From Dongiaceae bacterium (GTDB lineage Bacteria > Pseudomonadota > Alphaproteobacteria > Dongiales > Dongiaceae), in contig JBBDMS010000021.1 of assembly GCA_040878185.1 (NCBI GenBank), positions 52,667 to 116,666 on the forward strand: a stretch of DNA of 64,000 nt, given 5' to 3'. Shown one piece after another: positions 1 to 28,649 of the stretch. The notes beneath the pieces are model-generated. The model made no database searches and was not told the DNA's origin. It saw only the letters and a program-made list of their open reading frames with translations. Positions within the stretch are counted from its first letter, which is position 1; every line of letters begins with the position of its first letter. A program made the position numbers and the translations under genes.

Positions 1-2865
1 GGACGATGCCGGACGAAACGCGGTAGCCAGCAAATAAGCGCCCGCGCCCCATTCCTCATCGACCTCGATCGTGGTTTCGATGCCCTCGGGCCCAGCATCA
101 ACGATCCATGTGCGGTAGATGCGATCGCTGGCGAGCGCCAACTGCACGGGTCCTTCGAAGGGCGCCGTAATGAACGCACGCACGCTGTCGCCGGGTTCGA
201 ACAGATCGCCTTCGAGACTGATCTGCAGTGTGTCGGGTGAATCGCCCTCGCCCGGTCGTCCGTACCAGCCGGCCTGGAATCGGTAGCTCGCCGCCACGCC
301 CGCTTCCGGATCGTAAACCTCGAGCCGGTAGGAACCCCAGTCGAGCACCATGCTGACCAGACCGTTGCCGTCGGATGTCGTTTCGACGCTGCCGCCCGTT
401 TGTGGCATGTCGCGCACGGTCACGCTGTAGTCCCAGATGCCGCTGTCGTAGTACCACTGATAGTCCCATTCCTCGCGAATGAGATCGTAACGCAGGCCCA
501 CAGCGTCGACTGGTTTGCGTGTCGCGGTGTCGAGCCGGATCACGTCAAACTCGGCCGGCAGCGAATAGGGTGCGGAATCATCGGCGAAACGCGGCTTGAT
601 ACCGATCGCGGTCGCTTCATCGCGCACCGGCAGCAGCAACGTCTCGCTGACCGCCCTTCCGCCGGGTTCGAGCACATCGACATAGAGGGTCGCGCGCAGC
701 GGACTGGCCGTGTCGGGCAGTTGCGCCGCGTCGACACCGAACTGCGAAATGCCGGCGGCATCGGTGACCGGTGCATCGAGCGAGATACGAACCGGCTCGA
801 GCGCTTCGTCGGCGAGACCGAAACGATAGTCCGGATATTCCGGAAACGGATCCGGATCGCGATCGATCACGAGTTCGCCCATCACCACGAGATCGGCACC
901 CGGTGCGCCATAGAGATAAGCGGCATCGGCCGTCACATCGACCGGCGTACCCGGTACGAGCTCGGTCGCGGCGGTTTCGATCTCGACTTCGATACGGGCG
1001 GGAATGACGTCCTCGATCAGGAAGCCGACCGACCCGACCGGATCGCCCTCCGGATCGACAAAAGCCAGAACCTGCCACTGCCCGGTCGGGCTCGAAGTCG
1101 TGAAGTCGAGCGGAATGTGATGGCCACCGAGCGCGGATACCTCGGAATGAATTTCCTGGGCGAGCGTACCGTCGGGCCGCAACACATTGAAGAACAGCGG
1201 CAGATCGGGCAACGCCGCGCCCGCCGCATCGCGCAACAGGGCTACAAGCTCGACCCTTTCACCGGGCCGGTAGACGCCGCGATCGGTGTAGAGCAGCGCA
1301 TCGTAGATGCCGGTGACGTCGCGGCCACCGACGCCGCGATCGCTAAGATCGAAGGCCGGGCCCGAAAGATCGAGAAATGCGAAATCGGTATCGCCGTGAC
1401 TGGCGGTGAGCATCGTCGGCGCCAGACCCTGCGAACCGCGCAGCAGACCCGGTGCGAATGTCGCCTTGCCGTCCTGATCGGTCGTCGCGGTGGCGAGCTC
1501 TTCATTGTTGCGCGCATAGAGCCGCAATGTTGCGCCGGCCATTGGCTCGGCGCTGTCGAGCGAACGCGCGAACACGGTCAGGCCGTCGGTGCCGCTCATT
1601 GTCAGAAGGCCGATGTCGGTGACGATCAGCCATTGCGTTGCCTTCGCTTCCCAGTCAAAGGCTTCGCTCTCGCCTGTATCGGCCATCAGGATGTACGTGC
1701 CGGGTTCGATCTCCTCGATCATTTCCTGAACCGGGATCGATGTGACCACGCGTTCATTGCGCACCGACTCGATTTCAACGCTACCGGTCCAGATTTCCTC
1801 GCCAAGATCTTCGATGATGTAATCCCGGACCCAGGGGTCCAAGAGCTGGAGGACTCGACCATCGCGAATCTGCTGCACGAGATTGCGGTCGTTGATCCGC
1901 AGCAAGCTGAGCTGCGCCTCAGTCACATTGACGGTGGTGAGCGGCACACCGGTACTGCCGATGCGCGGCAGCACATAGGCGGTCGAACGGAACCCGAGCA
2001 CCGGATCGCGATCGGGCACCGCAACGTCGAGCGCCACATCGTCGCCGAGGCGCATGGCCAATTCGTCCGGCAGATCGGCAAGAAACTCGTAGGAATCCGT
2101 GCCGGGCAGGCCGGCGAGCAGCTCGACGGTGTAGCTCTGCCCGTAGGCAAAGCCGCCGATGCAGAGCGAATCGTACGAGACGTAGTATTGGAGTTCGGTC
2201 GTTGGTTCGACGCGAACATAGTCCGCGTAATTAACCTGCTGCGCATCTGGCAGATAGACGTCGAATTGCACGCAAAGTTCGGCTAGGTCGCCTTCGGTCC
2301 GCAACTCGCGGCCGACCATCGAGAATTCGCGCGCCTCGGCGAGGGTCTGTTTGGCGCCGGCACCCTTCTCGGGCGTGTCCCCCTGGCTCTGCTGATAGGC
2401 GGCAGCGGCCGCCGCCGGATCGCCCAGCCGGTCCAGCACGGCGCCGGCAATTCGCCAGGTGGCGGCGACATCGCCGTCATTGCCCGCCAACGCCCTGGCG
2501 GCGGTCGCCGCGGCCAGAGCCTCGTGGTCGCGCCCGCCCAGGCGATAGACCTGCGCGAGGCGCAGCCATGTCCGAAATTCGCCACCGTCGGCCGCGATCG
2601 CCCGCTCGTAATATGGCAGGGTTGCGTCCCAGTCCCGATCGGCCATCAGCGCCTCGGCCTGCTGTCGCAGTGCGGTCGCTTCGTACGTGTCGTCAGGTGC
2701 ATGCCGGTAGGCCGAGGCGATGCGGGCCCGTTCGTTCGCAAGAGCCAAAGCCGGATCGTTTGAGTCATCGATCGGCGTCTGGCCTGTCTGCTGGGCGTAA
2801 GCCAAGTTTGCGACAAAGACGAACAGGAGAAGCAGTTGAACCAGAACGGCGCGCCGCAACAGCAT
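1..2865 (-). CDS. alpha-2-macroglobulin family protein, N-terminal ~955 codons (3' end lies beyond the window start)
   Basis: Absent from the ORF track because it has no stop inside the window. The minus-strand frame is open from ATG (2865-2863) to position 1; I checked it triplet by triplet. N-terminus MLLRRAVLVQLLLLFVFVANLAYAQQ looks like a signal peptide. An Ala-rich TPR-like stretch follows, then beta-rich MG-domain-like segments (YLYGAPGADLVVMGELVIDRD, SYRLEVYDPEAGVAASYRFQAGWYG). G/C dominates third codon positions in this frame. Confidence 0.7.
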   Translation of the reverse strand, partial: MLLRRAVLVQLLLLFVFVANLAYAQQTGQTPIDDSNDPALALANERARIASAYRHAPDDTYEATALRQQAEALMADRDWDATLPYYERAIAADGGEFRTWLRLAQVYRLGGRDHEALAAATAARALAGNDGDVAATWRIAGAVLDRLGDPAAAAAAYQQSQGDTPEKGAGAKQTLAEAREFSMVGRELRTEGDLAELCVQFDVYLPDAQQVNYADYVRVEPTTELQYYVSYDSLCIGGFAYGQSYTVELLAGLPGTDSYEFLADLPDELAMRLGDDVALDVAVPDRDPVLGFRSTAYVLPRIGSTGVPLTTVNVTEAQLSLLRINDRNLVQQIRDGRVLQLLDPWVRDYIIEDLGEEIWTGSVEIESVRNERVVTSIPVQEMIEEIEPGTYILMADTGESEAFDWEAKATQWLIVTDIGLLTMSGTDGLTVFARSLDSAEPMAGATLRLYARNNEELATATTDQDGKATFAPGLLRGSQGLAPTMLTASHGDTDFAFLDLSGPAFDLSDRGVGGRDVTGIYDALLYTDRGVYRPGERVELVALLRDAAGAALPDLPLFFNVLRPDGTLAQEIHSEVSALGGHHIPLDFTTSSPTGQWQVLAFVDPEGDPVGSVGFLIEDVIPARIEVEIETAATELVPGTPVDVTADAAYLYGAPGADLVVMGELVIDRDPDPFPEYPDYRFGLADEALEPVRISLDAPVTDAAGISQFGVDAAQLPDTASPLRATLYVDVLEPGGRAVSETLLLPVRDEATAIGIKPRFADDSAPYSLPAEFDVIRLDTATRKPVDAVGLRYDLIREEWDYQWYYDSGIWDYSVTVRDMPQTGGSVETTSDGNGLVSMVLDWGSYRLEVYDPEAGVAASYRFQAGWYGRPGEGDSPDTLQISLEGDLFEPGDSVRAFITAPFEGPVQLALASDRIYRTWIVDAGPEGIETTIEVDEEWGAGAYLLATAFRPASS

Positions 2866-2908
2866 CGTTACCCCCAGCAGGATCGTCCGGAATCATTGCG
2901 ATTCCGGA

Positions 2909-4078
2909 ATGCGAATATCATCCCTGCAATATGGCCCGATTGGGGCAGGAATGGCTCATACGATGGACTATGATGCACCGGACACAGAGTGGATGACCAT
3001 CGTGACCGAGACGATACAGGAACAGGTCGGAACAGCCCTGCCGCGCGTCTGGCTGCTGCTCGGCAATCGCGCCGGCGACAATGCACAGATCGCAGCGCTG
3101 GGTGAAGCGCTCGGCTGGCCGGTCGAGATCAAGCACCTCACCTTCAACGCCTTGCACCACAACCGTAACCTGTTCCTCGGCGCCTCGCGCCGGACGCTGG
3201 ACCGCGCCAAGTCCGACAAACTGGACGCGCCCTGGCCGGATCTGGTCATCGCCGCGGGACGGCGCAGCGCACCGATCGCGCGATGGGTCCGGCGCCGTTC
3301 CGGCGGCAAGACCCGCCTTGTCCATATCGGGCGGCCCTGGGCGCCGGCGGGCTGGTTCGACCTCATCATCACGACCCCGCAATACGGCATGCGCTGGCGC
3401 CCGAACGTGCTGGTCAACGCAGCACCCCTGCACGCCATGACGCCCGAGCGCATGGAGGTGGCCGCCACGCTCTGGCAGTCGACGCTGGCCCACCTGCCCC
3501 GGCCCTGGACCGCGCTTTTGATCGGTGGCCCGAGCGCCCCCTACCGGTTCGGTCCGGCCGAAGTCCGCGCGCTGATCGACCAGGCGGTCGCCACGACACG
3601 GGCGAGCGGCGGCAGCCTGCTGGTGACCACCAGCGGACGGACCCCCGGCTCGGTCGGCCCGGCGCTCGAAGCCTGGCTCGGCGATGTCGCGCACCATCTC
3701 TTTTTGTGGCGCAAGGGCCAGGGCGACAATCCCTATTACGGTTACCTCGCTTTGGCCGACCGGTTCATCGTCACCGGCGACAGCGTGTCGATGATGACAG
3801 AGGCGACCGCGACCGGACGGCCGGTCGCGATCTATCGGCCGGCCGAGCGGCGGCGTCTGATCGGCAAGCGGGCGACGCGCGTGCCGCCGCTGCGCTGGCT
3901 GGTCGATGTCGGACTGTTGCCCCATCCGCGCGACATCGGCGCGTTCTGCGACCGCCTCGTCGCGTCGGGCCGCGCTTATTATCTCGGCGATCCGCTACCC
4001 GAGCGCAGCAGTCCCGCGCCCGAAGACATGAGCCGCGCCGTCGAGCATGTGCGCGCTTTGTTCAAGACGGAAGGTTGA
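2909..4078 (+). CDS. ELM1/DUF1022-family protein (predicted GT-B-like glycosyltransferase); start uncertain (2909, 2951, 2963 or 2993)
   Basis: LLLGNRAGDNAQIAALGEALGWP near the N-terminus and VTGDSVSMMTEA near the C-terminus are typical of bacterial 'mitochondrial fission ELM1' family proteins. Divergent from the a2M gene. Confidence 0.6.
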   Translation: MRISSLQYGPIGAGMAHTMDYDAPDTEWMTIVTETIQEQVGTALPRVWLLLGNRAGDNAQIAALGEALGWPVEIKHLTFNALHHNRNLFLGASRRTLDRAKSDKLDAPWPDLVIAAGRRSAPIARWVRRRSGGKTRLVHIGRPWAPAGWFDLIITTPQYGMRWRPNVLVNAAPLHAMTPERMEVAATLWQSTLAHLPRPWTALLIGGPSAPYRFGPAEVRALIDQAVATTRASGGSLLVTTSGRTPGSVGPALEAWLGDVAHHLFLWRKGQGDNPYYGYLALADRFIVTGDSVSMMTEATATGRPVAIYRPAERRRLIGKRATRVPPLRWLVDVGLLPHPRDIGAFCDRLVASGRAYYLGDPLPERSSPAPEDMSRAVEHVRALFKTEG

Positions 4079-4109
4079 CTGCGGCAGCGGCGATTCAGGC
4101 GGCGGCAAA

Positions 4110-5000
4110 TCAGGCAGCAGCCAAGGGCGGGGTGCGGCGCAACAGATCGAGGGCGTCGTGGCGCAGATGGTTCTGGGCCATTTCCTTGCGGATCAGATCC
4201 TCGCCGACGATCCCCTTCTCCAGGCACTCGCGCAGCAGGCCAAAGAAGAAGCGCTCCTGATTGGGATCGGGATGCGGACGATAGGACGTGACGGCCGGGA
4301 TCGGCACGATCCGCGTCAGCCAGTCGGCGGGCACGATGCCGAGCAGCCGCGCGCGTAGCGTGAAGTCGACCGGCAGGCCGGTCTTCCAGGGCTGGGTCCG
4401 ACGCTTGGTGTTGTGCAGCAGCCTTGTGTTCGCATCGAGATGATCGAAATCGTTCCACATCGGCTCCAGATCGCCGATCGACACGCGCGGCTCGTACTGA
4501 AGCTGGGTCCATTTCAGATAGTCGCGCTTGAATGCAAACAGCTCGTCGAACTGCTCGGCGCAGCGCCAGTGCCGCAGCTTCGCGCAATCGAGCAGCATCA
4601 CCGACGTCGCCTTATATTGTTCGCTGCCGTTATGGCCGGGCCGCGGCCGGGCCCAGATGGCCTTGTCCTGCATATCGCGATCGAGCAGTTCCCAGATATC
4701 GCCGACCGCGAAGATATCCGGGTCCATGATGACGGCGCGGCCTTCGTATCCCATCAGTTCGGGCGGCAAGAACCGCAGCGGCGTGAAGCTCTGCAGATCG
4801 TCCATCTCCCAGACGCGCTTTTCGTTGCCGCGCAGGAAGCGCTGGCCTTCGCGCGCCTTGAGAAAATCGAAATCCTCGGCATGCAGAATCCGGATCTCGA
4901 ACCGGTCGGCATGGCGTGAATTGCGCTCGAGCGAATAGGCCGAGGCGATGGCCCCGATCCGCTGGCGTCGATTGGTGTGGATGAAGACGCAGGATCGCAA
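4110..5000 (-). CDS. GT8-like nucleotide-diphospho-sugar glycosyltransferase (putative)
   Basis: TTG start. DxD-type motif VIMDPDIFAVGDIWELL and SVMLLDCAKL resemble GT8 (LYLDxDxxV ... GVMLINL). Family assignment made by eye only. Confidence 0.45.
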   Translation of the reverse strand: MRSCVFIHTNRRQRIGAIASAYSLERNSRHADRFEIRILHAEDFDFLKAREGQRFLRGNEKRVWEMDDLQSFTPLRFLPPELMGYEGRAVIMDPDIFAVGDIWELLDRDMQDKAIWARPRPGHNGSEQYKATSVMLLDCAKLRHWRCAEQFDELFAFKRDYLKWTQLQYEPRVSIGDLEPMWNDFDHLDANTRLLHNTKRRTQPWKTGLPVDFTLRARLLGIVPADWLTRIVPIPAVTSYRPHPDPNQERFFFGLLRECLEKGIVGEDLIRKEMAQNHLRHDALDLLRRTPPLAAA

Positions 5001-5111
5001 CCCGACTCTCCTTGGTTCTGGCCGAATGATCTAACCCCGCCGGCGGTTCCGACTCAACCCGGACGGACGCCCGGCCCGCCGGCGGGCCGCCCGCTCCGCG
5101 GGCTTGCGCGC

Positions 5112-6179
5112 CTAGCGGGTTCCCGCCGGCCTGCTGCCCAGCGGCGTCAGGGCAACCTGCTTCAGCGCATCGTACAGCCCTCCGCATTCCGCCTTCAGGC
5201 GCGCCATCTGAGCCGGATCGATATCGGGCTGCCGCGTGAGTACGCCGGAATCGACCTGGCCGATGCTCTTGTCGAAACTGCTGTTCGATTCGATCGGCGC
5301 GCTGTTGAAGGTCGGTATCGTCATCGCCGGATGGAAGTCGATGCCGATCTTCATGCAGAGCGCGCGCATCATGCCGGGCGTGTCGCGGACCAGTTCGTCG
5401 AGACCGATGCAGATCACTTTGTCGCCGTAAGTCCGTTTGTTGCGCAAGGTCGCCTCGGCGGACCGGCGCCACCAGGCGATCGCCGTTTCGAACTGGTCAT
5501 ATTGCCGCTTGCGCGCCTTGCCGCGATTTTTCGACAAAGCCGAGGCGAGCCAGCTCACCGGATCGCGCACAATCGAGACCAGATGCCCATCGGGATAGTC
5601 GCGGAAATATCGCGCGATGGAATCCGGATTCATCGCAAGGCCGGGGCAGAAGGCGCTGATACAGGCCGCCTCGTCATAGGATACGATCCTGTTGCCCCAG
5701 GACTTGAAGAACGCGTGGTAGAAGCAATCGAGCGCGCCGCGCTGCGTTGCCGGCCGCTTCGCCTCGATCAGGTTGCAGAAGATGCGATGGTGAAGCCCGA
5801 CATCGTAGTCGAACGCGTGCATCCGGGTCGGGTTCTTGGCCTTTGAATAACCCGTGCGCGCCCGTTCGATAAAACGCCCGTCGACAAGATAGCGAAACAA
5901 AGCGCGTGCGCCTTTCGTCGGATCGAGATCGGGCCAGTCGGCCTTGCCCCTGGCAATATGCATGTCACCGGGATAGGCGGCGATCTGCGGATGACCGTCG
6001 AGAAGCTGGCTGAGCAGTGTGCCGCCCGAGCGATGGATCTGCGAGATCAGAATGACATTGCGACCAACCGGGCCCAGATCGGAGGCGATATCCGGCACCG
6101 GCGATCGGGGCGATGGAATGAGCCAGCGGTCGCGCAGCCGCTTGAAGCGTCGAAGGCCGGAACTTACCGCGCGAACCAT
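5112..6179 (-). CDS. sulfotransferase family protein (1 of 3)
   Basis: PAPS 5'-phosphosulfate loop HRSGGTLLSQLL and 3'-phosphate motif VSIVRDPVSW. ATG start at 6179. Confidence 0.7.
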   Translation of the reverse strand: MVRAVSSGLRRFKRLRDRWLIPSPRSPVPDIASDLGPVGRNVILISQIHRSGGTLLSQLLDGHPQIAAYPGDMHIARGKADWPDLDPTKGARALFRYLVDGRFIERARTGYSKAKNPTRMHAFDYDVGLHHRIFCNLIEAKRPATQRGALDCFYHAFFKSWGNRIVSYDEAACISAFCPGLAMNPDSIARYFRDYPDGHLVSIVRDPVSWLASALSKNRGKARKRQYDQFETAIAWWRRSAEATLRNKRTYGDKVICIGLDELVRDTPGMMRALCMKIGIDFHPAMTIPTFNSAPIESNSSFDKSIGQVDSGVLTRQPDIDPAQMARLKAECGGLYDALKQVALTPLGSRPAGTR

Positions 6180-6488
6180 GTTCCGATGCCTGCTGCGATC
6201 GTGAAAGGGACCGGCGCCGCGTCCGGAATGCTATGCAACCGGTCCGGCGAGGCCCGGATGGAGTCGCAAGCCAGCCCTCTAAAGTCAACGGATTTGTCGG
6301 TTTTCGGGCCCGCCCGGGGGCCCGAAGCGCGTCCATTTGGCGCAGCTAGGACCGGCCACCCCACCGCATCCTAGGGCTGTAACCCGCCGGCAATTGCCAA
6401 TCCCATGGGCACGCTGGTACCACCAGCCCGCATTTCACGGCCATGCCGCCCGTTGTCACGGTGGGCCCGAACACGCTCCGGAGCATGG

Positions 6489-7595
6489 ATGCCCAGTATC
6501 AAGATCATCGGCGCCGGTTCGATCGGCAACCACCTCGCCCATGCCGCCCGTTCCTTTGGCTGGCAGGTGACGCTGACCGACATCGACCCCGCGGCGCTCG
6601 AACGTTCGCGCGAGAGCATCTATCCGCAGCGTTACGGCGCATGGGACGATGCGATCCGGCTCAAGGATACGCGCGAGGCAATGGGCGACGCGGCCGATGT
6701 GGTCTTCATCGGTACGCCGCCCGACAGCCATATGAAAATCGCATCGGCGGTGCTCGATGCCGCGGCGCCGCGCGCGCTGGTAATCGAGAAGCCGCTCTGC
6801 GGCCCCGATCTTGCCGGCTGCGAGGAACTCTGGCAGCGCACGCGCAAGGCCGGCATCTTCGCCGGCGTCGGATACAATCACACGCTCGGTGCCAATACGG
6901 TGCTTGCCGAGCAGGCGCTGGCGACCGGCACGATCGGCGAGGTCGCGACCTTGTCGGCGCGCACGCGCGAACATTGGGGCGGCATCTTCAAGGCGCACTC
7001 CTGGCTTGCCGGTCCGGCCGACAGCTATCTCGGCTATTGGGCGCGCGGCGGCGGCGCGACCGGCGAGCATTCGCACGGCATCAATATGTGGCAGCATTTC
7101 GCGCATCGCATCGGTGCGGGCAAGGTCGTCGAAGTCAGCGCGACGATGGACATGGTGCGCGACGGCAAGACCGAATATGACCGGCTCGCGCTGATATCGC
7201 TCAAGACCAGCGAAGGGCTGACAGGCGACGTGATCCAGGATGTCGTGACGGCGCCGGCCCAGAAATCGGTGCGCATCCAGGGGCGCGACGGTTTCATCGA
7301 ATGGCGCGTCAATTATGGCCCCAATGTCGATGCGGTGATTACCGGCAGCGGTGACAAGGCGAACGAGCCGACATTGCTGCCGAAGACCCGGGCCGACGAC
7401 TTCAAGGCCGAGATCGCCCATCTTGCCGGCGTTCTCGATGGTGCTTTCGGGGGCAAGGCCGAGGGCTCACCCATTGCGCTCGAACGCGGCCTTGATACGA
7501 TGATGGTCATCGCCGCGGCCTTCAAATCCCATCAGACCGGGCGGCGGGTCGCCATCGACTGGCGCACCGGCTATCGTCCCGACGCCCTGCGCTGA
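6489..7595 (+). CDS. Gfo/Idh/MocA-family NAD(P)-dependent oxidoreductase
   Basis: Rossmann N-terminus MPSIKIIGAGSIGNHLA, then VVFIGTPPDSH and EKPL motifs. I prefer the internal ATG at 6489 to the track start at 6405. Confidence 0.7.
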   Translation: MPSIKIIGAGSIGNHLAHAARSFGWQVTLTDIDPAALERSRESIYPQRYGAWDDAIRLKDTREAMGDAADVVFIGTPPDSHMKIASAVLDAAAPRALVIEKPLCGPDLAGCEELWQRTRKAGIFAGVGYNHTLGANTVLAEQALATGTIGEVATLSARTREHWGGIFKAHSWLAGPADSYLGYWARGGGATGEHSHGINMWQHFAHRIGAGKVVEVSATMDMVRDGKTEYDRLALISLKTSEGLTGDVIQDVVTAPAQKSVRIQGRDGFIEWRVNYGPNVDAVITGSGDKANEPTLLPKTRADDFKAEIAHLAGVLDGAFGGKAEGSPIALERGLDTMMVIAAAFKSHQTGRRVAIDWRTGYRPDALR

Positions 7596-7622
7596 GTCGC
7601 CTGGAGAACCGCCGAGAACCCA

Positions 7623-9155
7623 ATGCAGAAACCGTTCAAGTTCAACGACCTGTTCATCTACGACCTGGCCAATAATCACCAGGGCGATATCGAGCACGCA
7701 TCCAACATCATTCGCGGGATCGGCAAGGCGAACGCCGACGCCGGCGCGCGTGGCGCGTTCAAGTTCCAGTTTCGCCAGCTCGACACGTTCATTCATCCCG
7801 ACTACCAGACCCGGAACGATCTCAAGTTCATTAAACGGTTCAACGAAACCCGGATGTCGATGGACGATTTCCGGAAACTTGCCGACCTGATCCGCGCGCA
7901 GGGCATGCTCACCATGTGCACGCCGTTCGACGAGGAATCGGTCGACGTCATCTGCGACATGGGCCTCGACATCATCAAGGTGGCGAGCTGCTCGGCCGAC
8001 GATCGGCCGCTGCTCGAGAAGGTCGCGCGCGTCAATCGGCCGCTGGTCGTGTCAACGGCGGGCCTGCGGATCGAGGAGATCGACTGGCTGGTTAATTTCC
8101 TCGAAAGCGAGCGTGCGGATTTCGCGCTGATGCATTGCATCGCGGAGTACCCGACCGACGACGACAAGCTGCAGCTCAACCAGATCGAGTTTCTGCGTGA
8201 CCGCTATCGCACCGTTCCGATCGGCTGGTCGACGCATGAGGATCCGGACAACACGGACCCGATCAAGCTCGCCTACGCCAAGGGCGCACGGCTGTTCGAA
8301 CGGCATGTCGGCATCAAGACCGACAAGTATCCGCTGAACGCCTATTCCTCGACGCCCGAGCAGATCGCAAAATGGCTCGCCGCGCATAAATATGCGAAGG
8401 GCATGCTGGGCGCGGCCGAACGCGCGCCCTCCTCGCCGCTCGAACGCAAGACGCTCAAGGAACTGAAGCGCGGCGTCTATGCCAAGCGCACGCTCGCGAA
8501 GGGCAAGCCGATCAAGCGCGAGGATGTGTTCTTTGCGATGCCGGTCGAGGAGGATCAGCTTCTCAGCGGCCAGTGGCGCCCGGGCATGATCGCGCCCGCC
8601 GACATCGCCGCGAAGGCGGCGTTGCCCGAAAGCATGTCCAAGGAAGCGCTGACCGACGAACAACTCGTCTATCAGATCATGCTGCAGGTCCGCGCCATGC
8701 TGAACAAGGCGAACATCCATATCAATGAGGATGCATCGATCGAGATCTCGCATCATTACGGGTTGCGGCGTTTCCGCGAATATGGCGCGGTCATCGTCAC
8801 CTGCATCAACCGCAGTTACGCGAAGAAGCTGGTGATCCAGCTGCCGCGCCAGAAACATCCCTATCACCATCACAAGCAGAAGGAAGAAACCTTCCAGCTT
8901 CTGGATGGCGACATGGAGATCGTGAAGAACGGCGAGCGCATCTCGATGCGGCCGGGCGACACGTTCCTGGTCGAGCCCGACGCCTGGCACAAGTTCCATA
9001 CGTTGGACGGCGCCATCGTCGAGGAAGTCTCGACCACGCATTTCAACAACGATTCCTTCTACGAAGATCCGGAGATCGCCAAGAAGGAACGCCATGAGCG
9101 CAAGACCCAGGTCGACAACTGGCTGGCATATTTCCGGTCCAAGCATGCGCTTTAA
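7623..9155 (+). CDS. neuB: NeuB-family nonulosonate (sialic-acid-type) synthase fused to a C-terminal cupin domain
   Basis: NeuB-like TIM barrel (IIKVASCSADD, MHCIAEYPT, GWSTHE) and a SAF-like segment (GVYAKRTLAKGKPIKREDVFF). An extra ~150 aa forms a cupin: HPYHHHKQKEETF...GDTFLVEPDAWHKFH...EEVSTTHFNNDSFYED. Confidence 0.8.
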   Translation: MQKPFKFNDLFIYDLANNHQGDIEHASNIIRGIGKANADAGARGAFKFQFRQLDTFIHPDYQTRNDLKFIKRFNETRMSMDDFRKLADLIRAQGMLTMCTPFDEESVDVICDMGLDIIKVASCSADDRPLLEKVARVNRPLVVSTAGLRIEEIDWLVNFLESERADFALMHCIAEYPTDDDKLQLNQIEFLRDRYRTVPIGWSTHEDPDNTDPIKLAYAKGARLFERHVGIKTDKYPLNAYSSTPEQIAKWLAAHKYAKGMLGAAERAPSSPLERKTLKELKRGVYAKRTLAKGKPIKREDVFFAMPVEEDQLLSGQWRPGMIAPADIAAKAALPESMSKEALTDEQLVYQIMLQVRAMLNKANIHINEDASIEISHHYGLRRFREYGAVIVTCINRSYAKKLVIQLPRQKHPYHHHKQKEETFQLLDGDMEIVKNGERISMRPGDTFLVEPDAWHKFHTLDGAIVEEVSTTHFNNDSFYEDPEIAKKERHERKTQVDNWLAYFRSKHAL

Positions 9156-9762
9156 GGCGGTCGTCTTCGATTTCGACGGCACGCTTATCGATTCGGCCGA
9201 CGCCAAGCGCGATGCGTTCTTCCGCCTGTTTCCGGCGGCGGAGCCTTATCGCGCCATCGTCAATCGCGTACTGACCGCGGACCCGGACGGATCGCGCCAT
9301 GTCGTCATCCCGCGCATGATCGAAGCGATGACCGCTAAAAAGCTCGCCCTTCCGCACGGCCATAATGCGACCGACCGCATCGGTGCCTATGCGCAGGCAG
9401 TCTATGCGGCGCAGCGCGCGGCCGCGGAATGCCCCGGCGCCGAAACCCTGCTGCGCGCGCTCAAGGGTCACGCAGCCCTCTATATCAGCTCGAACACCCC
9501 CGAACCCGATCTCGGCACGCTGGTTGCCGCGCGAGGCTGGAGCGAACTGGTTGACGGTCTCTTCGGTCATCCGCGCGACAAGAGCGAAACGCTCGCGTTG
9601 CTGGTCGAGCGTCACGATGCGGCGAAGGACGAGATCGCCGTTGTAGGCGATGGCGAGAGCGACGAACGCGCGGCATACGCGATCGGCTGTCCGTTCTTCC
9701 GGGTCTGCGGCCCCAAGGCACTCGCCGATGTCGGGCGCAAGCTCGGGCTCGAACATGTTTGA
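9145..9762 (+). CDS. HAD-superfamily (subfamily IA-like) phosphatase
   Basis: Motif I VVFDFDGTLID, motif II ISSNTP, motif IV VVGDGESD. Its ATG at 9145 overlaps the neuB stop (9153-9155). Confidence 0.75.
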   Translation: MRFKAVVFDFDGTLIDSADAKRDAFFRLFPAAEPYRAIVNRVLTADPDGSRHVVIPRMIEAMTAKKLALPHGHNATDRIGAYAQAVYAAQRAAAECPGAETLLRALKGHAALYISSNTPEPDLGTLVAARGWSELVDGLFGHPRDKSETLALLVERHDAAKDEIAVVGDGESDERAAYAIGCPFFRVCGPKALADVGRKLGLEHV

Positions 9763-10474
9763 GGGCAAGCGCGTCCTGGTCGTCGTGCCGGCGCGCGGCG
9801 GCAGCCAGGGCGTCAAGCTGAAGAACCTGCGCGAGATCGGCGGGGTTCCGTTGGTCGTACAAGCCGGACGGATCGCGATCGCACTCGATTTTGCCGATCG
9901 CTGCATCGTCTCGACCGATCACGCCGAGATCGCCCGCGTCGCGACGGAAGCCGGGCTTGCCGCGCCGTTTGTCCGACCCGAGGCGCTTTCGGGCGCAGTC
10001 ATCAGCGATCTACAGGTTCTGACGCACGCGCTCGAGGAAATGGAGCGCATCGACGGCCGGCGCTACGACATCGTCGTGATGCTTCAGCCGACTTCGCCGA
10101 GCCGCACCGTGCAGCATGTGCGCGACACGGTTACCCTACTGGTTCGCGGCGCCTTCGATGCGGTCTGGACCGTCAGCGAGAGCGACAGCAAGGCCCATCC
10201 GCTGAAGCAACTGACCGTGGGCGAGGGCGGCGGGCTCGACTACTACGATTCCAAGGGTGCTGCGATCGTGGCCCGCCAGCAGCTTCAGCCGGTCTATCAC
10301 CGCAACGGCATTACCTATGCGTTCACGCGTGCCTGCCTGCTCGACCAGAAAACAATCAAAGGCGCGCGTACCGGCGCGCTCGTCGTCGAGGGTCCGGTCG
10401 TCAATATCGACACCGAACTCGACCTCGAATGGGCGAATTTCCTGCATCAGCGCGCCACCACCGCGCGGCCCTAG
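9755..10474 (+). CDS. neuA: acylneuraminate cytidylyltransferase family (CMP-nonulosonate synthetase)
   Basis: VVVPARGGSQGVKLKNL and MLQPTSPSR are canonical CMP-NeuAc/CMP-Kdo synthetase motifs. Its start overlaps the HAD stop (ATGTTTGA). Confidence 0.8.
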   Translation: MFEGKRVLVVVPARGGSQGVKLKNLREIGGVPLVVQAGRIAIALDFADRCIVSTDHAEIARVATEAGLAAPFVRPEALSGAVISDLQVLTHALEEMERIDGRRYDIVVMLQPTSPSRTVQHVRDTVTLLVRGAFDAVWTVSESDSKAHPLKQLTVGEGGGLDYYDSKGAAIVARQQLQPVYHRNGITYAFTRACLLDQKTIKGARTGALVVEGPVVNIDTELDLEWANFLHQRATTARP

Positions 10475-10484
10475 CCGCCGCGCC

Positions 10485-11786
10485 TCAGCCGCGCGCGGGC
10501 GCGTGGGGAAAGGCTTCGGCGAAACGCACCGGCCAGGTTTCGATCGGGAACGACTGGAACGAGCCGTCGTTCACGATGAGATCGTGCCGCGCCAGCCGGT
10601 CCGCATGGCGTTGGCAGAACGTGGCCCAGGAATCGTACCAGTCGTTCAGAAAAACGCCGCTTTCGTACTTCTTCAGAAGATCGCGGTCGCGCTTGCGCTG
10701 GCGGTTGGTGCGATCCGACCGGGCCATCTCGCCGGACTGGATATGAGCGCGGAGCCGTTCGCCCTGCGCCATCAAGGTCAGAACCGTCACGCGATCGGCA
10801 ACTCCCATCAAATGCAGCACCGGATCGCGATCGTAGGACCGGATGCCGGTGCGCGACGGGCGCAGGAAATCGTAATGCAACAGCACGCGCTCGTTGCGAC
10901 CGTTCGGCATCGAATCCGCTTCCGACGCCTGCAGGAGCTGCCAGTCTGAGCCGTCCAGACCGTATTGGGCGCGCAGCGACGCATCCGCCATCAGCCGGTC
11001 GATCAACGTGCTCTTCCCCACGCTCGTCGGCCCGGTGACAATCGCGAGATGCCCGATGCGGCGCTTGCGCGCTTCGACCAGCACACGGCCCTTGAACGGC
11101 GAGCGGCTGATCGTAACAGGCTCGAATGCGTTCGTGTGCACGTTGAGCACGATTTCGAGCGCACCTGGTGTGAAGAGATAGGTGCGCCCCGCCGCATCGC
11201 CGCGCTTCTTCGGGATTCCGAGAAACATCGCCGGCGAACCGATGCCGAAGACGCGAAGCGGGTTGATCCGGTCGCGCACGACATCGCGCCAGGTCGGCAC
11301 GGCGACTTCCAGAACCAGCCGGTCGCGCGTCATCCGCATCATCTTCTGCAACCCGCCAAGCGGATCGAACAGATGATGCAGCACGTTCAGACAGGCCACC
11401 GTATCGAACTGCCGTCCCCGATCGTCCCATTCCTCGAAATTGGCGCGGATATATTCAGGCCGGACCTCAAGTAATTCGGCGAACTCGCGGGCCTGACGCA
11501 GATTGCGCGGGTCGGTCTCGATACCGGTGGCCGTGGCGGCGCCGCGCTGCAGCGCCTCGACGCAGAAATAGCCGAGATAGCTGCCGATATCGAAGAACGT
11601 CTTGCCGTGAAAATCGTCGCCGAAGAGACGTGGCAGCAGATAACTGCGATCATAACCCGGCGTCGTGCCGCCATCGGGCAGGACGAACGCCTGATATTCC
11701 GGCGCCTCGTCGAGCAACCGCTGCAGACGCGCATGCCATTCGGGATCGCGATCCGGCTGCGGCACCGTCACTTTGCGGTCGTTCAT
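10485..11786 (-). CDS. fusion protein: class I SAM-dependent methyltransferase (N-terminal) + P-loop NTPase/kinase-like domain (C-terminal), paralog A
   Basis: MTase motif I FFDIGSYLGYF and CLNVLHHL. Walker A VTGPTSVGKST, Walker-B-like VLLHYD. ATG at 11786 (MNDRKV) avoids overlap with the upstream gene. Colinear with the 16834-18087 product. Confidence 0.65.
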   Translation of the reverse strand: MNDRKVTVPQPDRDPEWHARLQRLLDEAPEYQAFVLPDGGTTPGYDRSYLLPRLFGDDFHGKTFFDIGSYLGYFCVEALQRGAATATGIETDPRNLRQAREFAELLEVRPEYIRANFEEWDDRGRQFDTVACLNVLHHLFDPLGGLQKMMRMTRDRLVLEVAVPTWRDVVRDRINPLRVFGIGSPAMFLGIPKKRGDAAGRTYLFTPGALEIVLNVHTNAFEPVTISRSPFKGRVLVEARKRRIGHLAIVTGPTSVGKSTLIDRLMADASLRAQYGLDGSDWQLLQASEADSMPNGRNERVLLHYDFLRPSRTGIRSYDRDPVLHLMGVADRVTVLTLMAQGERLRAHIQSGEMARSDRTNRQRKRDRDLLKKYESGVFLNDWYDSWATFCQRHADRLARHDLIVNDGSFQSFPIETWPVRFAEAFPHAPARG

Positions 11787-11796
11787 GCGCGGCGGG

Positions 11797-12735
11797 TCAC
11801 AACGAAATTGCGAGGCGCTGGATCTCGTCCAGATCGAGCGCACGAGAGAGCGTGTCGACGGGCCAGTCGGCCGGGCTCAGCTCGGGTGCGTAGATATCGG
11901 TGTACTGGATCAGCAGCATGACCCGCGTTTTACTGTTCTGCCGCGAGCCATAATGCAGACAGCGCGACGTGTCGACCAGCATGCTTTGGCCCGGCTGGCC
12001 GGTCAGCTTCACTTCGCGGCTCGGACCCAGAAACCGGTCGACCTCTTCGATCGTCAGCCGCCCGCGGTCATAATTCAGCCCTTCGACCACGCGCTCGGAT
12101 TCGTCCGCCGGCAGGAAGGTGAACGGCCCGTGCTCGTCGGTCACGTCGTCGACGCACACGAACAACTTGACCTGACGGTCATCGGCGAAATCGAGATGAT
12201 AGAGCTGGCTGCCGATCTCGGAGAGATTCGGCAGGCTGACCATGACCGACACATCGCTCAGGATCGGCACCGCGCCGAGATAGCGGCTCACCGCATCGAG
12301 GACCGGGCGCGCCAACGCGAGGCGCATAATGTCGAGATACTGCGCAGTCGCGCGCTTCTGCGTGGCATAGACCAGGAATTCCTTGCGCGAGGCACCGTGA
12401 TCGTAACGCTGCAGCGCTCCGGTGCGTTCGCTCTCGCGAAAGACTTCCATGCCCTGTTTTACAGCCGGCGCGATCTCGGGCAGGCGGTTCGGTGCGACGG
12501 CGGCACAGGCACGCGCCCGATCGATCGCAACTGCATCGCTGGCAGCGACGCCCATTTGCCGCGCAAGCTCGGGACGATGCAGATAGGGAAACGGATTCAT
12601 CCCGATGCCGACCGCACGGCTGATACGGATCGCCGGCACGCGCGGCACCCCGAGACGCTTCGCCAGGAACAGATTGAGGTTCCGGCTGGTTGCGTAACGG
12701 GCCTTGGCATAAGACTGGCGAAGCGACTGGCTCAT
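11797..12735 (-). CDS. Fe(II)/2-oxoglutarate-dependent oxygenase-like protein (PhyH-like), putative
   Basis: HxD facial-triad candidate LYHLDFAD, distal CLHYGSRQNSKTR (His plus Arg), and GPFTFLP. Confidence 0.5.
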   Translation of the reverse strand: MSQSLRQSYAKARYATSRNLNLFLAKRLGVPRVPAIRISRAVGIGMNPFPYLHRPELARQMGVAASDAVAIDRARACAAVAPNRLPEIAPAVKQGMEVFRESERTGALQRYDHGASRKEFLVYATQKRATAQYLDIMRLALARPVLDAVSRYLGAVPILSDVSVMVSLPNLSEIGSQLYHLDFADDRQVKLFVCVDDVTDEHGPFTFLPADESERVVEGLNYDRGRLTIEEVDRFLGPSREVKLTGQPGQSMLVDTSRCLHYGSRQNSKTRVMLLIQYTDIYAPELSPADWPVDTLSRALDLDEIQRLAISL

Positions 12736-12979
12736 TCGGTCAGAAGACCTTCTGCGTTTGGGAGCCGCTGGCAGGGCGGCCGCATCGCGAAATACGCCAT
12801 CGTCCTGGCGGAGGCGAATCCCTTCATTTCGCGGCGAATTAGCTGGCCAGCCTCCATTCTTGTCAAGGCGACGCCCGACCGCAGCCTGCGATCCGCGGCT
12901 CGACAGTCATGAGGCTGCCGACTAGGCTTCGGCCTCCGCGCAACGCCCAACCTTCCGTTTCGAGACCGATCGCTGCGCC

Positions 12980-13873
12980 ATGCAAGACGCCCCGCCGCCC
13001 TGGACCGAACGCGCCGCTTTGGTCTACGGGCCCCGCAAAGCCGGTACCACCTTGTTGCTGAACCTGCTGGACGGGAGCGACGCGCTATTGGCGTTTCCGA
13101 GCGAAGTGAAGCTGAAAGCGCTGCATCGCATCCCCGCCGGCGCGCATTCGCGTGAGACCTATCTGGCGCGATCGCGCATCGCCGAGGTCGACGCGGCCCG
13201 CCTGTCGCAGGATCGCTACCAGGCGCTTTGGGCAGCGGTCGATCCTAAAGCCGCCGCCGGCAGGCTTTGCACGCTGCTGCGCCTCGACGCATGGCATGTG
13301 CACCAGACCGCGGCGACGGCGCCGCGCGAACCGCAACTCTGGTGCGCCAAAGAGGTCGGCGGCGATACCGATGCGATCCTCGATCTGTGGCGGCGCTGTT
13401 TCCCCGATGCGCCGGTCCTGTTCATTCTGCGCAATCCCCTCATGGTCACGCGGGCCGTGTTGCAGGACCGCCGGCGCAAGGATCGACGATTGAGCATCGC
13501 CGAGATCGTCCGCGAAACCGCCGACCCGATGCGCGTGGTGGCGGCGCAGAGCCGTCATCTCGGCGATCCGCGCCTGCTCGCGATTGCATACGAGGACATG
13601 GTGACCGACACGCCCGCGACGATGCGACGCATCGCAGCGTTCCTCGGCATCCCCTTCGATGCGATCCTGTTGCAACCGACATTGTTCGGCGAACCAATCG
13701 TGGTGCGAACCTCGTCGCGTTCGACCACCGAAGTGTTTCAGGCTTCGGAGGAATGGGAGGATGGGCTGACCCGTCGGGAGCAGTTCTGGGTCAGGCTCAC
13801 GGCCGCTGTGCTCGGCTGTCTGCCCGGCTATCGCGTCGATTATGCATGGCTGCGGCAACGCGTGGCCGATTAG
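12980..13873 (+). CDS. sulfotransferase family protein (2 of 3)
   Basis: GPRKAGTTLLLNLL (5'-PSB loop) and FILRNPLMVTRA (3'-PB). Confidence 0.7.
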   Translation: MQDAPPPWTERAALVYGPRKAGTTLLLNLLDGSDALLAFPSEVKLKALHRIPAGAHSRETYLARSRIAEVDAARLSQDRYQALWAAVDPKAAAGRLCTLLRLDAWHVHQTAATAPREPQLWCAKEVGGDTDAILDLWRRCFPDAPVLFILRNPLMVTRAVLQDRRRKDRRLSIAEIVRETADPMRVVAAQSRHLGDPRLLAIAYEDMVTDTPATMRRIAAFLGIPFDAILLQPTLFGEPIVVRTSSRSTTEVFQASEEWEDGLTRREQFWVRLTAAVLGCLPGYRVDYAWLRQRVAD

Positions 13874-14202
13874 GAAATGGCCTGCAACGAGCGGGTCAGC
13901 CCGATCCACCTCCGCGTTCCGGCGCGGTGTCACGATATTGACCCGCCAATTGCGGCGGGGTTCCCGTATTCCCGCTTTCCCAGACGCGCCATTCACCGTT
14001 AGTCTTTGGAGAGATTGACTGATTCTTCCCGATTTGATCTCGCGCAATCGGGTAACCTTGGGCGATCCGGCCGGCGATGTTCGCGGAGTTCGCCACTTTC
14101 GCCCCAAAAGAGACCGATGAACGCAACCCGGCAGACCGGAATCCTTTCTGAAAGCGCACGTCGAACCGCGCCTTGCCTTTCGGCTTTTGGTAAACCCCGA
14201 TC

Positions 14203-15222
14203 ATGAACCCCGATAGCGGCGTCTATCGCAACCCGCCGTTGGAGGATCCGGTTCGGGTCATCTATGTCTGCTGCCACGGGCGAAGCGGCTCGACATTGCT
14301 CGGTGCCATCGCCGGCTTGCTGCCTCAGCACAGCTTCGTCGGCGAAGTGCGTACGATCTGGGAGGATGGTGTCGACAACAACAGGAATTGCGGCTGCGGC
14401 GAACCGTTCCGGAGCTGCCGCTTCTGGAACGAAGTGTTTAAGCGCGCCTATGGCGGGTTCGACACGCCGGCGGCCATGAAAACGCGCGACCTGCTGACGC
14501 GGCTTATGAAGGTCAACAGCAGGCCCGCTCTGTGGTGGGCGCTGCTGCGCGAAAACCGCCGGCACGAGACAACTCGCGCGTTGGCCGATGCGCTCGCCCC
14601 GCTCTATCGCGCCATCCACGACGTATCCGGTGGGCAGATCATCGTCGACACCTCCAAGCATGCACGGTTTGGTTTCGTCATTGCCAACATTCCCGGTGTC
14701 GATATCCGCTTCGTCAATCTGATCCGCGATGTTCGCGGCGTCATCTTTTCCCGTGCGCGACCGGCGCTGATGCGCGACGGCAGCACGCGACATGCGCAAC
14801 GCTCGAAGCAGCCGCACTACAGAACGGGAACCGTGTTGGGGCGTTGGCTCTTCCGGAATGCCCTCGCGATGCGCCTCGTTCGTCGCCATGGCGGCATTCG
14901 CGTACTTTATGAAGACTTCGTGCATGACCAGAAGCCCGCGCTCGTCGCATTGAGCGACAACGATCGCGCGCGGATCGCGCTGGATCGGCTGGCGTACCCG
15001 GATGCGGCGGAGATCGTCCAGCATCAGTTGGCGGGCAACTGGATCCGCAACCTGAAGATCGACACCTCGGAGCGTTGGCCCGACGAGCTGCCTCGTCCCG
15101 TGCAGCGGATCGCGACATTCTTCTCGTGGCCACTTCGGCGACGCTATCGCTACGAAGTGCAACAGCCGAGCGGCTTCGCCGAGCGTCCCGACACGAGGCA
15201 GAGCGCAAGAGCGGCTCGCTAG
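14203..15222 (+). CDS. sulfotransferase family protein (3 of 3)
   Basis: CCHGRSGSTLLGAI (5'-PSB) and VNLIRDVRGVIFS (3'-PB). Contains a Cys cluster CGCGEPFRSC. Confidence 0.7.
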   Translation: MNPDSGVYRNPPLEDPVRVIYVCCHGRSGSTLLGAIAGLLPQHSFVGEVRTIWEDGVDNNRNCGCGEPFRSCRFWNEVFKRAYGGFDTPAAMKTRDLLTRLMKVNSRPALWWALLRENRRHETTRALADALAPLYRAIHDVSGGQIIVDTSKHARFGFVIANIPGVDIRFVNLIRDVRGVIFSRARPALMRDGSTRHAQRSKQPHYRTGTVLGRWLFRNALAMRLVRRHGGIRVLYEDFVHDQKPALVALSDNDRARIALDRLAYPDAAEIVQHQLAGNWIRNLKIDTSERWPDELPRPVQRIATFFSWPLRRRYRYEVQQPSGFAERPDTRQSARAAR

Positions 15223-15332
15223 GCTCGAAATCGCACAATCGCTGTGTTAGGTTCGCGCGGCCTGCGAACCTGTCCCACCACCGCGCTTCCGGCCGCGCCA
15301 CGCGGCCCGAACCCGATCGAGCCCGCCCATTA

Positions 15333-22769: not shown

Positions 22770-22869
22770 ACTAAACCCCTGACCTAATTGGAATCTACGG
22801 CTGTCCAGGCCACGACGCGCGTCGCGGTATTTGGATTCGTGGAGCGATCGAGTCGAGGCAGCGTTGAGA

Positions 22870-25382: not shown

Positions 25383-25405
25383 CGAAGGTCTTTCCGACGG
25401 GTCGG

Positions 25406-27522: not shown

Positions 27523-27595
27523 GAGAGAATCTGGCCGCAATCCGGGGATGAGTTTGAAGGCCGCATGGGCCGCCGCTTGACCGAACCGGCCGGCC

Positions 27596-28579: not shown

Positions 28580-28649
28580 AATCGGCAGGCCGGGCGGAAC
28601 GCGTCAACCTTCCGGCCCGTGCTAGGTTGCGGTCGAACCAAGGAATGAG

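Follow-up and report, generated by a model that had tools for sequence, protein, structure and literature searches.

A NeuB–cupin fusion in a four-gene operon predicted to make a CMP-activated ulosonic acid of the Kdn type

Which sugar acid is made by a NeuB-family synthase that carries a sugar isomerase-like domain of its own and is surrounded by no amino-sugar enzymes? The question is raised by a 64,000-nucleotide stretch of a Dongiaceae bacterium genome (contig JBBDMS010000021.1, positions 52,667 to 116,666; hereafter the window), in which a single open reading frame (ORF) joins a phosphoenolpyruvate (PEP)-condensing NeuB domain to a C-terminal cupin. Its gene is the second of a four-gene operon (6489–10474) that codes for a Gfo/Idh/MocA oxidoreductase (Gfo below), the NeuB–cupin protein, a HAD phosphatase and a cytidylyltransferase. 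This gene order is repeated at 80 loci of several phyla, which is beyond chance. On balance, the sequences favour an operon that would make a cytidine monophosphate (CMP)-activated, non-aminated 3-deoxy-2-ulosonic acid of the Kdn (2-keto-3-deoxy-nononic acid) type directly from central sugar-phosphate metabolism. Kdn itself is a plausible product, but falls somewhat short of being the probable one. The operon is composed as follows:

6489–7595, plus strand: Gfo/Idh/MocA-family NAD(P) sugar oxidoreductase, the first gene (Pfam GFO_IDH_MocA plus C3 domain)
7623–8639, plus strand: NeuB-type PEP-condensing ulosonic acid synthase domain, a TIM barrel and SAF/AFP-like subdomain (residues 1–339 of 510)
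8640–9155, plus strand: D-lyxose/D-mannose-isomerase-type cupin domain, fused to the synthase (residues 340–510 and the stop codon)
9145–9762, plus strand: HAD-IA phosphatase, predicted to be C1-capped (Pfam Hydrolase and HAD_2)
9755–10474, plus strand: CMP-nonulosonate synthetase-like cytidylyltransferase (CTP_transf_3)

The synthase ORF (7623–9155, plus strand) encodes 510 residues and holds the motifs HPYHHHKQKEETF, GDTFLVEPDAWHKFH and EEVSTTHFNNDSFYED. The ATG of the HAD gene at 9145, in MRFKAVVFDFDGT, creates an 11-nt overlap with the synthase stop codon (TAA, 9153–9155), and the ATG of the cytidylyltransferase gene at 9755, within ATGTTTGA, an 8-nt overlap with the HAD stop codon (TGA, 9760–9762). 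An earlier note on this DNA had described a 510-residue NeuB–cupin ORF followed by overlapping HAD and CMP-transferase genes, and the coordinates and domain matches bear this out. The Gfo gene lies 27 nt upstream of the synthase, a divergent gene (5112–6179, minus strand) flanks the unit upstream and a convergent gene (10485–11843, minus strand) downstream, and no plus-strand terminator-like site was found inside it by a promoter and terminator scan that was otherwise uninformative. Thus, 6489–10474 is one four-gene operon. Alternative ORF starts at 9094 (HAD) and 9650 (cytidylyltransferase) were dropped because tblastn alignments of homologues favour 9145 and 9755; a Gfo start at 6405 was dropped because homologues of ~364 residues favour 6489 (MPSIKIIGAGS).

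The same note had seen no upstream enzymes of the NeuC, pseudaminic (Pse) or legionaminic (Leg) acid routes. A Pfam search that took in essentially all plausible ORFs of the window agrees: there is no Epimerase_2/NeuC, no PseB/LegB-type dehydratase, no DegT aminotransferase and no NeuD/PseH-type acetyltransferase, a negative that is strong but short of absolute, as five window ORFs have no family match.

The synthase domain is matched by Pfam NeuB (PF03102) at residues 37–264 (E 1.4e-40; 139.7 bits, cut-off 22.1), and its closest sequence in the Protein Data Bank (PDB) is 3G8R (E 3e-96 over residues 9–330). In a Foldseek search with an AlphaFold2 model of the synthase–cupin protein (pLDDT 82), the synthase matches 3G8R, 1XUU and 8H2C. 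Characterised synthases are distant (B. subtilis SpsE, 82 bits; Leptospira NeuB, 80; N. meningitidis NeuB, 60; C. jejuni PseI, 59), and the domain fails the equivalog tests for NeuB (TIGR03569, 135.9 bits against 399.65) and pseudaminate synthase (TIGR03586, 118.8 against 340.25). The residues of the metal and PEP sites have been conserved: H205, H228, K47, K119, S122, S144, S203 and E226, which correspond, in this order, to H215, H236, K53, K129, S132, S154, S213 and E234 of N. meningitidis NeuB, are invariant in 78 sequences, as are Q49 and T100. R51, K68, R72 and R149 do not vary within the family either. Three substrate-side positions are invariantly changed with respect to N. meningitidis NeuB (E134 to S124, D247 to N239 and R314 to M306); the R314A entry 4IPI, which was included in the alignment, confirms the R314 position; the SAF region around it is aligned with lower confidence. 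From the 1XUZ structure work, we take the roles of these residues in N. meningitidis NeuB to be those of a metal-binding His pair, PEP-binding Lys and Ser residues, and an Arg314 that binds the acetamido group. Since the metal and PEP residues are kept while the three substrate-side positions are changed, the domain is very probably an active PEP-condensing enzyme whose aldose is not N-acetylmannosamine (ManNAc). The generic annotation "N-acetylneuraminate synthase family protein" is probably wrong as to substrate.

The closest structure, 3G8R, is a "probable spore coat polysaccharide biosynthesis protein E" from Chromobacterium violaceum and belongs to the same NeuB subfamily (46% identity over 338 Foldseek columns). 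It has the same family-specific Ser and Asn where N. meningitidis NeuB has E134 and D247. At the position of R314 it has a Phe where the present family has an invariant Met, so that both lack the Arg. Unlike the protein described here, 3G8R, a structural genomics entry of 350 residues with no function assigned, carries no cupin domain.

The cupin aligns end to end with the D-lyxose isomerase YdaE of B. subtilis (2Y0O) and with Thermofilum 7NZO. Cupin_2 is matched at residues 407–460 (E 3.8e-10), and Lyx_isomer (PF07385) with 35.3 bits, above its gathering cut-off of 20.8. The metal ligands H415, H417, E422 and H456 are equivalent to H69, H71, E82 and H137 of YdaE, K420 to K80 and E468 to E150, and all six residues are invariant in the 78 sequences. 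In Foldseek, the top cupin matches, listed after the NeuB/PseI structures, are the D-lyxose isomerases 2Y0O, 7NZQ, 7NZO, 7NZP and 3KMH (162–200 alignment columns, E 3e-10 to 1e-8), mannose- and fructose-bound forms among them. The target-normalised TM score is 0.63–0.68 for 2Y0O and 7NZO/P/Q and about 0.5 for 3KMH. By these measures, the cupin is a divergent member of the D-lyxose/D-mannose isomerase family and a predicted isomerase, as had been proposed from its metal-site spacing. It shares with YdaE, the Thermofilum enzyme (7NZO–Q) and E. coli O157 Z5688 (3KMH) a cupin fold of ~160–185 residues, the four metal ligands, the Lys and the Glu, but differs from them in its low identity (~24%), in a loop that is shorter by six residues after the HxH motif and in its fusion to the C-terminus of NeuB.

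The cupin appears to occur chiefly in this fused form. A phmmer search with the cupin alone gave 80 clusters (50% identity) at E ≤ 1e-30; among the best 150 matches listed, full-length proteins are mostly ~500 residues long with the cupin at residues 340–505, and about ten representatives of 165–177 residues may be split genes or fragments. A search of a word-indexed database with the cupin alone yielded for the most part incomplete genes on short contigs. One 414-residue protein (P0394) joins the same cupin type to the N-terminal domain of a thiamine pyrophosphate enzyme.

The HAD protein has a DxDGT motif in MRFKAVVFDFDGT and a GDGESD motif, and it matches Pfam Hydrolase and HAD_2 as well as HAD-IA models. 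Some 95 residues lie between motifs I and II, a large insertion that points to a C1 cap. By its sequence, the protein is a C1-capped HAD-IA enzyme, outside the KdsC-like (C0 cap) family of the known Kdn-9-phosphate (Kdn-9-P) phosphatase. It has no sequence relative in the PDB at E ≤ 1e-3; structures of both KdsC and BT1713 of B. thetaiotaomicron are presumably present there. The cytidylyltransferase matches CTP_transf_3 with 59 bits (E 7e-16), and its nearest solved relatives are the CMP-N-acetylneuraminate (CMP-Neu5Ac) synthetases 6IFD (3e-24) and 1EYR (1e-21), with KdsB reaching merely 5e-6. Because it is nearest to CMP-Neu5Ac synthetases and far from KdsB, a nine-carbon acid is favoured. 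Against the PseF equivalog model, it scores 108 bits, below the cut-off of 205.7.

The Gfo protein displays the Rossmann GxGxxG motif as GAGSIG and the EKP motif as IEKPL, with K101 invariant, and has many further invariant basic residues. Its AlphaFold2 model has a pLDDT of 93.6. The Foldseek neighbours of this model are equidistant (E ~1e-21) and comprise scyllo-inositol dehydrogenase, levoglucosan dehydrogenase, WlbA, GFOR, AFR, glycoside 3-dehydrogenases and YjhC, all of them sugar or cyclitol secondary-alcohol dehydrogenases. Neither NCBIfam matches (all ≤30 bits) nor PDB sequence matches (no better than E 7e-6) assign it to a subfamily or a substrate, and databases name its homologues merely "predicted dehydrogenase".

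How widely this set of genes is conserved was judged from a species-level scan with one genome per GTDB species, which found at least 263 encoding stretches. The locus counts given here cover the best 80 of the 263 and come from tblastn searches of the window proteins against these 80 loci. The fusion is common in databases and not unusual. All of its 120 best database relatives combine NeuB, Cupin_2 and Lyx_isomer in 508–512 residues at 65–92% identity, and the nearest relatives are encoded in metagenome-assembled genomes of Dongiaceae and Rhodospirillaceae (94% identity). The best 80 loci belong to Alphaproteobacteria (Dongiaceae, Rhodospirillaceae, Hyphomicrobiales, Aestuariivirga), Desulfobacterota/"delta" lineages, Nitrospirales, Kiritimatiellia, Marinimicrobia, Bacillota and others. 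A plasmid search gave nothing beyond one distant haloarchaeal neuB. The partner genes are distributed over the 80 loci as follows:

Gfo: 74 of 80 loci; in the six others the contig ends within 410 nt of the synthase, which makes the count effectively 74 of 74
HAD phosphatase: 67 of 80 loci; five of the 13 others are truncated and eight genuinely lack the gene
Cytidylyltransferase: 66 of 80 loci; most of the rest are truncated
TIGR04396 protein (ORF 15075–16700; gene 15330–16700): 53 of 80 loci, usually directly upstream of Gfo

The three genes that overlap in the window are co-conserved, but they do not constitute the minimal three-gene module of the earlier note. Gfo is an obligate fourth member, found in every locus with upstream DNA and linked to the synthase more tightly than HAD or the cytidylyltransferase. 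When all ORFs up to 8 kb from the synthase were clustered over the 80 loci, no other universally conserved enzyme emerged, be it a kinase, an aminotransferase or an acetyltransferase, and genes of the NeuC, PseB, PseC or PseH type are conserved beside the cassette in none of them. Two natural fusions unite members of the set: a NeuB–cupin–HAD protein of 723 residues (P0366) and a Gfo–NeuB–cupin protein of 881 residues with Gfo at the N-terminus (P0071). The linker of the latter resembles translated intergenic DNA, so that this fusion could reflect loss of a stop codon or a sequencing artefact. In the cultured species Rhodoligotrophos defluvii (L081, where the four orthologues occupy 8892–12847), the genes for TIGR04396, Gfo, NeuB–cupin, HAD, cytidylyltransferase and a sulfotransferase form a compact island among housekeeping genes.

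The sequences themselves show five catalytic domains with intact key residues that share an operon, are inherited together in several phyla and are in part fused. The pathway that we infer from these proteins, in its substrates, the order of its steps and its product, would start with the cupin, which may convert a ketose or ketose phosphate, such as fructose-6-phosphate (fructose-6-P), to a manno-configured aldose. The NeuB domain would condense this aldose with PEP. The HAD enzyme would then act as a phosphatase, most likely on a 9-phosphononulosonate and less likely on a ketose phosphate before isomerisation, and the cytidylyltransferase would turn the acid into a CMP-sugar, which the TIGR04396 protein (15330–16700) may transfer to a surface glycoconjugate. 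Gfo would contribute an obligatory NAD(P)-dependent step, either in preparing the ketose or in oxidising or epimerising the ulosonate, as YjhC/NanOx do at C4 of sialic acid. The final sugar may be a stereoisomer or an oxidised form of Kdn. A substrate that is not N-acetylated is argued for by the invariant Met in place of Arg314 and by the absence of amino-sugar enzymes from cassette and window. A nonulosonate is preferred to an octulosonate because the cytidylyltransferase is closest to CMP-Neu5Ac synthetases and the transferase is related to Pse/Leg transferases of Tannerella. The natural NeuB–cupin–HAD fusion reinforces a logic of the Kdn-9-P style.

The simplest alternative is a self-sufficient three-enzyme route to Kdn (fructose-6-P to mannose-6-P, Kdn-9-P, Kdn and CMP-Kdn), in which Gfo is irrelevant or tailors the glycan. 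The gene triad fits the published Kdn-9-P logic, the isomerase-type cupin has its ligands intact, the NeuB–cupin–HAD fusion exists, and Kdn is frequent in environmental bacteria with no known pathway. However, Gfo is always adjacent (74 of 74 loci), is fused to the synthase in P0071 and is tied to it more tightly than HAD or the cytidylyltransferase, which implies a core biosynthetic role, and the housekeeping phosphomannose isomerase of most bacteria already converts fructose-6-P to mannose-6-P. We regard this route as rather unlikely.

Alternatively, Gfo and the cupin could together act as an oxidation-assisted epimerase or isomerase, with a transient keto sugar being enolised or re-faced by the metal cupin to yield an unusual aldose (a rare stereoisomer, for example, or ManNAc-6-P from GlcNAc-6-P) that NeuB would convert to a novel nonulosonate. 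Such a scheme would explain why Gfo and NeuB–cupin are inseparable and sometimes fused. Gfo-family enzymes often oxidise C3 or C4 of sugars, which activates neighbouring positions; levoglucosan dehydrogenase, the glycoside 3-dehydrogenases, WlbA and YjhC are among the structural neighbours of Gfo; and the substrate contacts of NeuB differ from the canonical ones. Yet the cupin has the full ligand set and the overall fold of aldose–ketose isomerases, with the known sugar keto-isomerases or epimerases (FdtA, RmlC) scoring far lower, and we consider the scheme improbable.

A third possibility is an eight-carbon product akin to 3-deoxy-octulosonic acid (Kdo), for which the cupin would convert D-xylulose-5-P to D-lyxose-5-P and NeuB would make 3-deoxy-octulosonate 8-phosphate. 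The cupin does belong to the D-lyxose isomerase family, xylulose-5-P is universal, D-lyxose is mannose shortened by one carbon, and Foldseek also shows the expected distant similarity to KDO8P synthases. This is nevertheless very unlikely: the cytidylyltransferase is far closer to CMP-Neu5Ac synthetases (1e-21 to 1e-24) than to KdsB (5e-6), the transferase family has nonulosonate transferases as relatives, the synthase belongs to NeuB and not to KdsA, and Gfo is still left unexplained. Least credible of all, and next to negligible, is a conventional operon for Neu5Ac, legionaminic or pseudaminic acid with an accessory or regulatory cupin. Such an operon would agree with the annotation as N-acetylneuraminate synthase and could draw its amino-sugar precursor from genes elsewhere in the genome, but it conflicts with scores that reach about a third of what the NeuB and PseI equivalog models require, the invariant Met at the N-acetyl-binding Arg314 position, the lack of conserved NeuC, PseB, PseC or PseH-type genes in all 80 loci, and cupin catalytic residues too invariant for a decayed appendage.

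Several observations weigh against the Kdn-type route that we prefer. The cassette proteins fail every equivalog-level test for characterised enzymes, and the cupin reaches only 16.4 bits with the Gram-negative lyxose/mannose isomerase equivalog NF051472 (cut-off 350). Characterised D-lyxose isomerases, like bacterial NeuBs, use free sugars, so that the use of fructose-6-P is an assumption. The changed substrate contacts (E134 to S124, D247 to N239) mean that the aldose could be something unexpected. The HAD enzyme is of another subfamily than the known Kdn-9-P phosphatase, and it is missing from the eight untruncated loci and from a further locus on a 4.4-Mb metagenomic contig (L083). Finally, a plain Kdn route has no need of a universally linked oxidoreductase; for this reason, the sugar may be an epimer or an oxidised derivative of Kdn.

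The nearest biochemical precedent is the Kdn-9-P synthase, phosphatase and CMP-synthetase route of B. thetaiotaomicron (BT1713–1715) and Prymnesium parvum (PMC6200933). Both there and here, a NeuB-family synthase, a phosphatase and a CMP-synthetase act together, amino-sugar steps are absent, and a phosphorylated intermediate is implied; the three genes of the cassette are co-located, as in the B. thetaiotaomicron type of the pathway. The cassette differs in the isomerase fused to the synthase, in a C1-capped HAD-IA in place of a KdsC-type C0 HAD, in the obligate Gfo and in a synthase clade that is deeply separate (~60–80 bits to any characterised NeuB). The reading of synthase, phosphatase and cytidylyltransferase as Kdn-9-P logic therefore stands in part: the triad matches the published route, whereas the HAD is not KdsC-like and Gfo has no role in that route.

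In Serratia marcescens KL1/KL2, a 747-residue NeuB is fused to a COG1082 sugar-phosphate isomerase/epimerase domain, neuB is required for a Kdn-containing capsule, and the capsule locus holds only neuA and neuB (PMC9000132). The Serratia protein thus resembles the present one in the fusion of the synthase to a sugar isomerase and in a locus devoid of NeuC, and in Serratia Kdn has been observed experimentally. However, its isomerase is a xylose-isomerase-like TIM barrel and not a cupin, and its locus has neither HAD nor Gfo. The two proteins are independent fusion events.

In the animal sialic acid route (NANS, NANP, CMAS), a phosphorylated aldose and PEP give a 9-phosphate, which is dephosphorylated by a C1-capped HAD and activated with CMP. 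The cassette would follow the same logic of PEP condensation, C1-capped HAD and CMP activation, but it is a bacterial operon with no kinase or epimerase (GNE), a probably non-N-acetylated substrate and an additional oxidoreductase.

No characterisation of the NeuB–cupin fusion or of the four-gene cassette was found in the literature searched or among the curated NCBIfam models (release June 2026), in line with what the earlier note had supposed of the fusion. A large phylogeny of nonulosonate synthases mentions neither cupins nor Kdn clades nor an oxidoreductase partner. The cassette is common in nature yet functionally unrecognised; it has one obligate component, Gfo, to which a plain Kdn route gives no role, and its recurrent link to sphingolipid operons (see below) is unexpected. 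Kdn/Neu-type nonulosonic acids turn up with high frequency in mass-spectrometric surveys of environmental bacteria (PMC8157484), yet the known bacterial routes to non-aminated acids of this kind are few, and the cassette is a concrete candidate to fill this gap. It would add a pathway architecture in which a synthase–isomerase fusion is combined with an obligate oxidoreductase, and its product could be a new sugar misassigned as Kdn by mass alone. Its carriers include cultured Rhodoligotrophos species and Nitrospira, which is important in nitrification and wastewater treatment.

The operon lies in a surface-glycan locus, with the following genes around it:

2909–4078, plus strand: ELM1-family (PF06258) GT-B-like protein, accessory (Mito_fiss_Elm1, E 3.7e-67; 18 of 80 loci)
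4110–5000, minus strand: conserved protein, possibly GT8-like, accessory (MDPD, a DxD-like motif; faint Glyco_transf_8 match, E 0.13)
5112–6179, minus strand; 12980–13873, plus strand; 14203–15222, plus strand: three sulfotransferases
10485–11843, minus strand, and 16834–18087, plus strand: methyltransferase-domain paralogues of ~420–450 residues, 32–35% identical, each with an N-terminal SAM-methyltransferase domain
11797–12735, minus strand: conserved ORF of 312 residues with no Pfam or NCBIfam match
15330–16700, plus strand: TIGR04396 "surface carbohydrate biosynthesis protein" (332 bits, cut-off 125)
18155–19933, plus strand: MsbA/PglK/HepA-like ABC exporter (ABC_membrane and ABC_tran; HepA and MsbA models matched below their cut-offs; 17 of 80 loci)

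The TIGR04396 protein weakly resembles the BFO_1060 family of nonulosonate transferases (49.8 bits, cut-off 200), whose Tannerella members are proposed Pse/Leg transferases (PMC5420450). This similarity makes it probably a CMP-nonulosonate-dependent glycosyltransferase, which would use the product of the operon. In the metagenomic locus that has no HAD gene (L083, 12672–21530), Gfo, NeuB–cupin and the cytidylyltransferase are directly followed by six or seven tandem TIGR04396 paralogues of ~454 residues each, an array that recalls the paralogue expansions of the flagellin-glycosylating Maf proteins.

Homologues of the 4110–5000 protein occur in 23 of the 80 loci next to ELM1, and in Nitrospirales the two are fused into a protein of 811 residues (L076, 4885–7320). 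Both are probably glycosyltransferases of this pathway, and the ABC exporter probably flips or exports a lipid-linked glycoconjugate. Besides the three sulfotransferase genes around the operon in the window, a sulfotransferase gene directly follows the cytidylyltransferase in R. defluvii (L081, 12903–13601) and in at least seven other loci, which suggests O-sulfation of the nonulosonate or of its glycan.

The acceptor of the sugar may be hinted at by a lipid locus that lies directly downstream of the exporter gene:

20010–21779, plus strand: fatty acyl-AMP ligase (NF006624, 801 bits)
21783–22733, plus strand: CerR-like reductase of the epimerase family
22831–23121, plus strand: acyl carrier protein (ACP) with a DSL motif
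23126–24343, plus strand: serine palmitoyltransferase (NF047599, 653 bits, cut-off 500, equivalog level)
26362–27621: CpgA-like CDP-alcohol transferase
27581–28579: metallophosphoesterase
28626–29099: HIT protein
29100–31387: LptF/LptG pair, embedded in the lipid locus
31438–32259: fatty-acid hydroxylase
33405–35213: two nucleotidyltransferases

Serine palmitoyltransferase, ACP, acyl-AMP ligase and the CerR-like reductase make up a Caulobacter-type ceramide gene set (PMC9393093; for ceramide and ceramide-phosphoglycerate genes, see also PMC11324152). No bCerS or ceramide kinase was recognised in the lipid locus of the window, where ORFs 24426–25439 (minus strand) and 32260–33429 (plus strand) are candidates. 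Directly upstream of the cassette, eight Nitrospirales loci and a deltaproteobacterial one (L049) carry same-strand genes for the ligase, reductase, ACP and serine palmitoyltransferase. In the Nitrospirales loci, a HIT gene precedes the ligase, and the lipid genes are followed by the fusion of the 4110-type and ELM1 proteins, TIGR04396, Gfo, NeuB–cupin, HAD and the cytidylyltransferase; L049 has the same lipid-gene link but is missing the ELM1 fusion. The clearest example is Nitrospira sp. DJ (CP058931; L076), where 559–14270 is a single same-strand operon, followed by a methyltransferase gene. In three further loci of Desulfobacterota/"delta" lineages (L038, L052, L055), CpgA-like and 24426-type genes precede the cassette. 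The synthases of the three lipid-linked clades are just 50–57% identical to each other, so the link is not that of one recently transferred island.

These arrangements lead us to propose, tentatively and as a possibility we do not count as probable, that an undescribed Kdn-type nonulosonate, with its stereochemistry or oxidation state set by Gfo, is transferred to a ceramide-based lipid in Dongiaceae-like, Nitrospirales and some Desulfobacterota lineages. If so, the outer membrane of these bacteria would contain a "ganglioside-like" nonulosonate glycosphingolipid, possibly sulfated or methylated. Sialylated sphingolipids are, to our knowledge, so far known only from eukaryotes, and bacteria would make them too if the operon link reflects chemistry. 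On the other hand, neither the R. defluvii cassette nor the one with the tandem TIGR04396 paralogues (L083) has lipid genes nearby, so that the acceptor probably differs between genomes.

Other genes of the window also recur beside the cassette. Homologues of the methyltransferase paralogues are found near it in four loci (L014, L015, L019, L021), and towards its C-terminus the 16834–18087 protein additionally gives faint P-loop matches (AAA_33/AAA_16). Homologues of the 312-residue protein (29–94% identical) adjoin the cassette in 12 loci, including Nitrospirales. At the edge of the window, a gene for a bacterial alpha-2-macroglobulin (MG domains and TPR) is cut off after its N-terminal ~960 residues (1–2892, minus strand); this gene is syntenic in the closest relative (L002).

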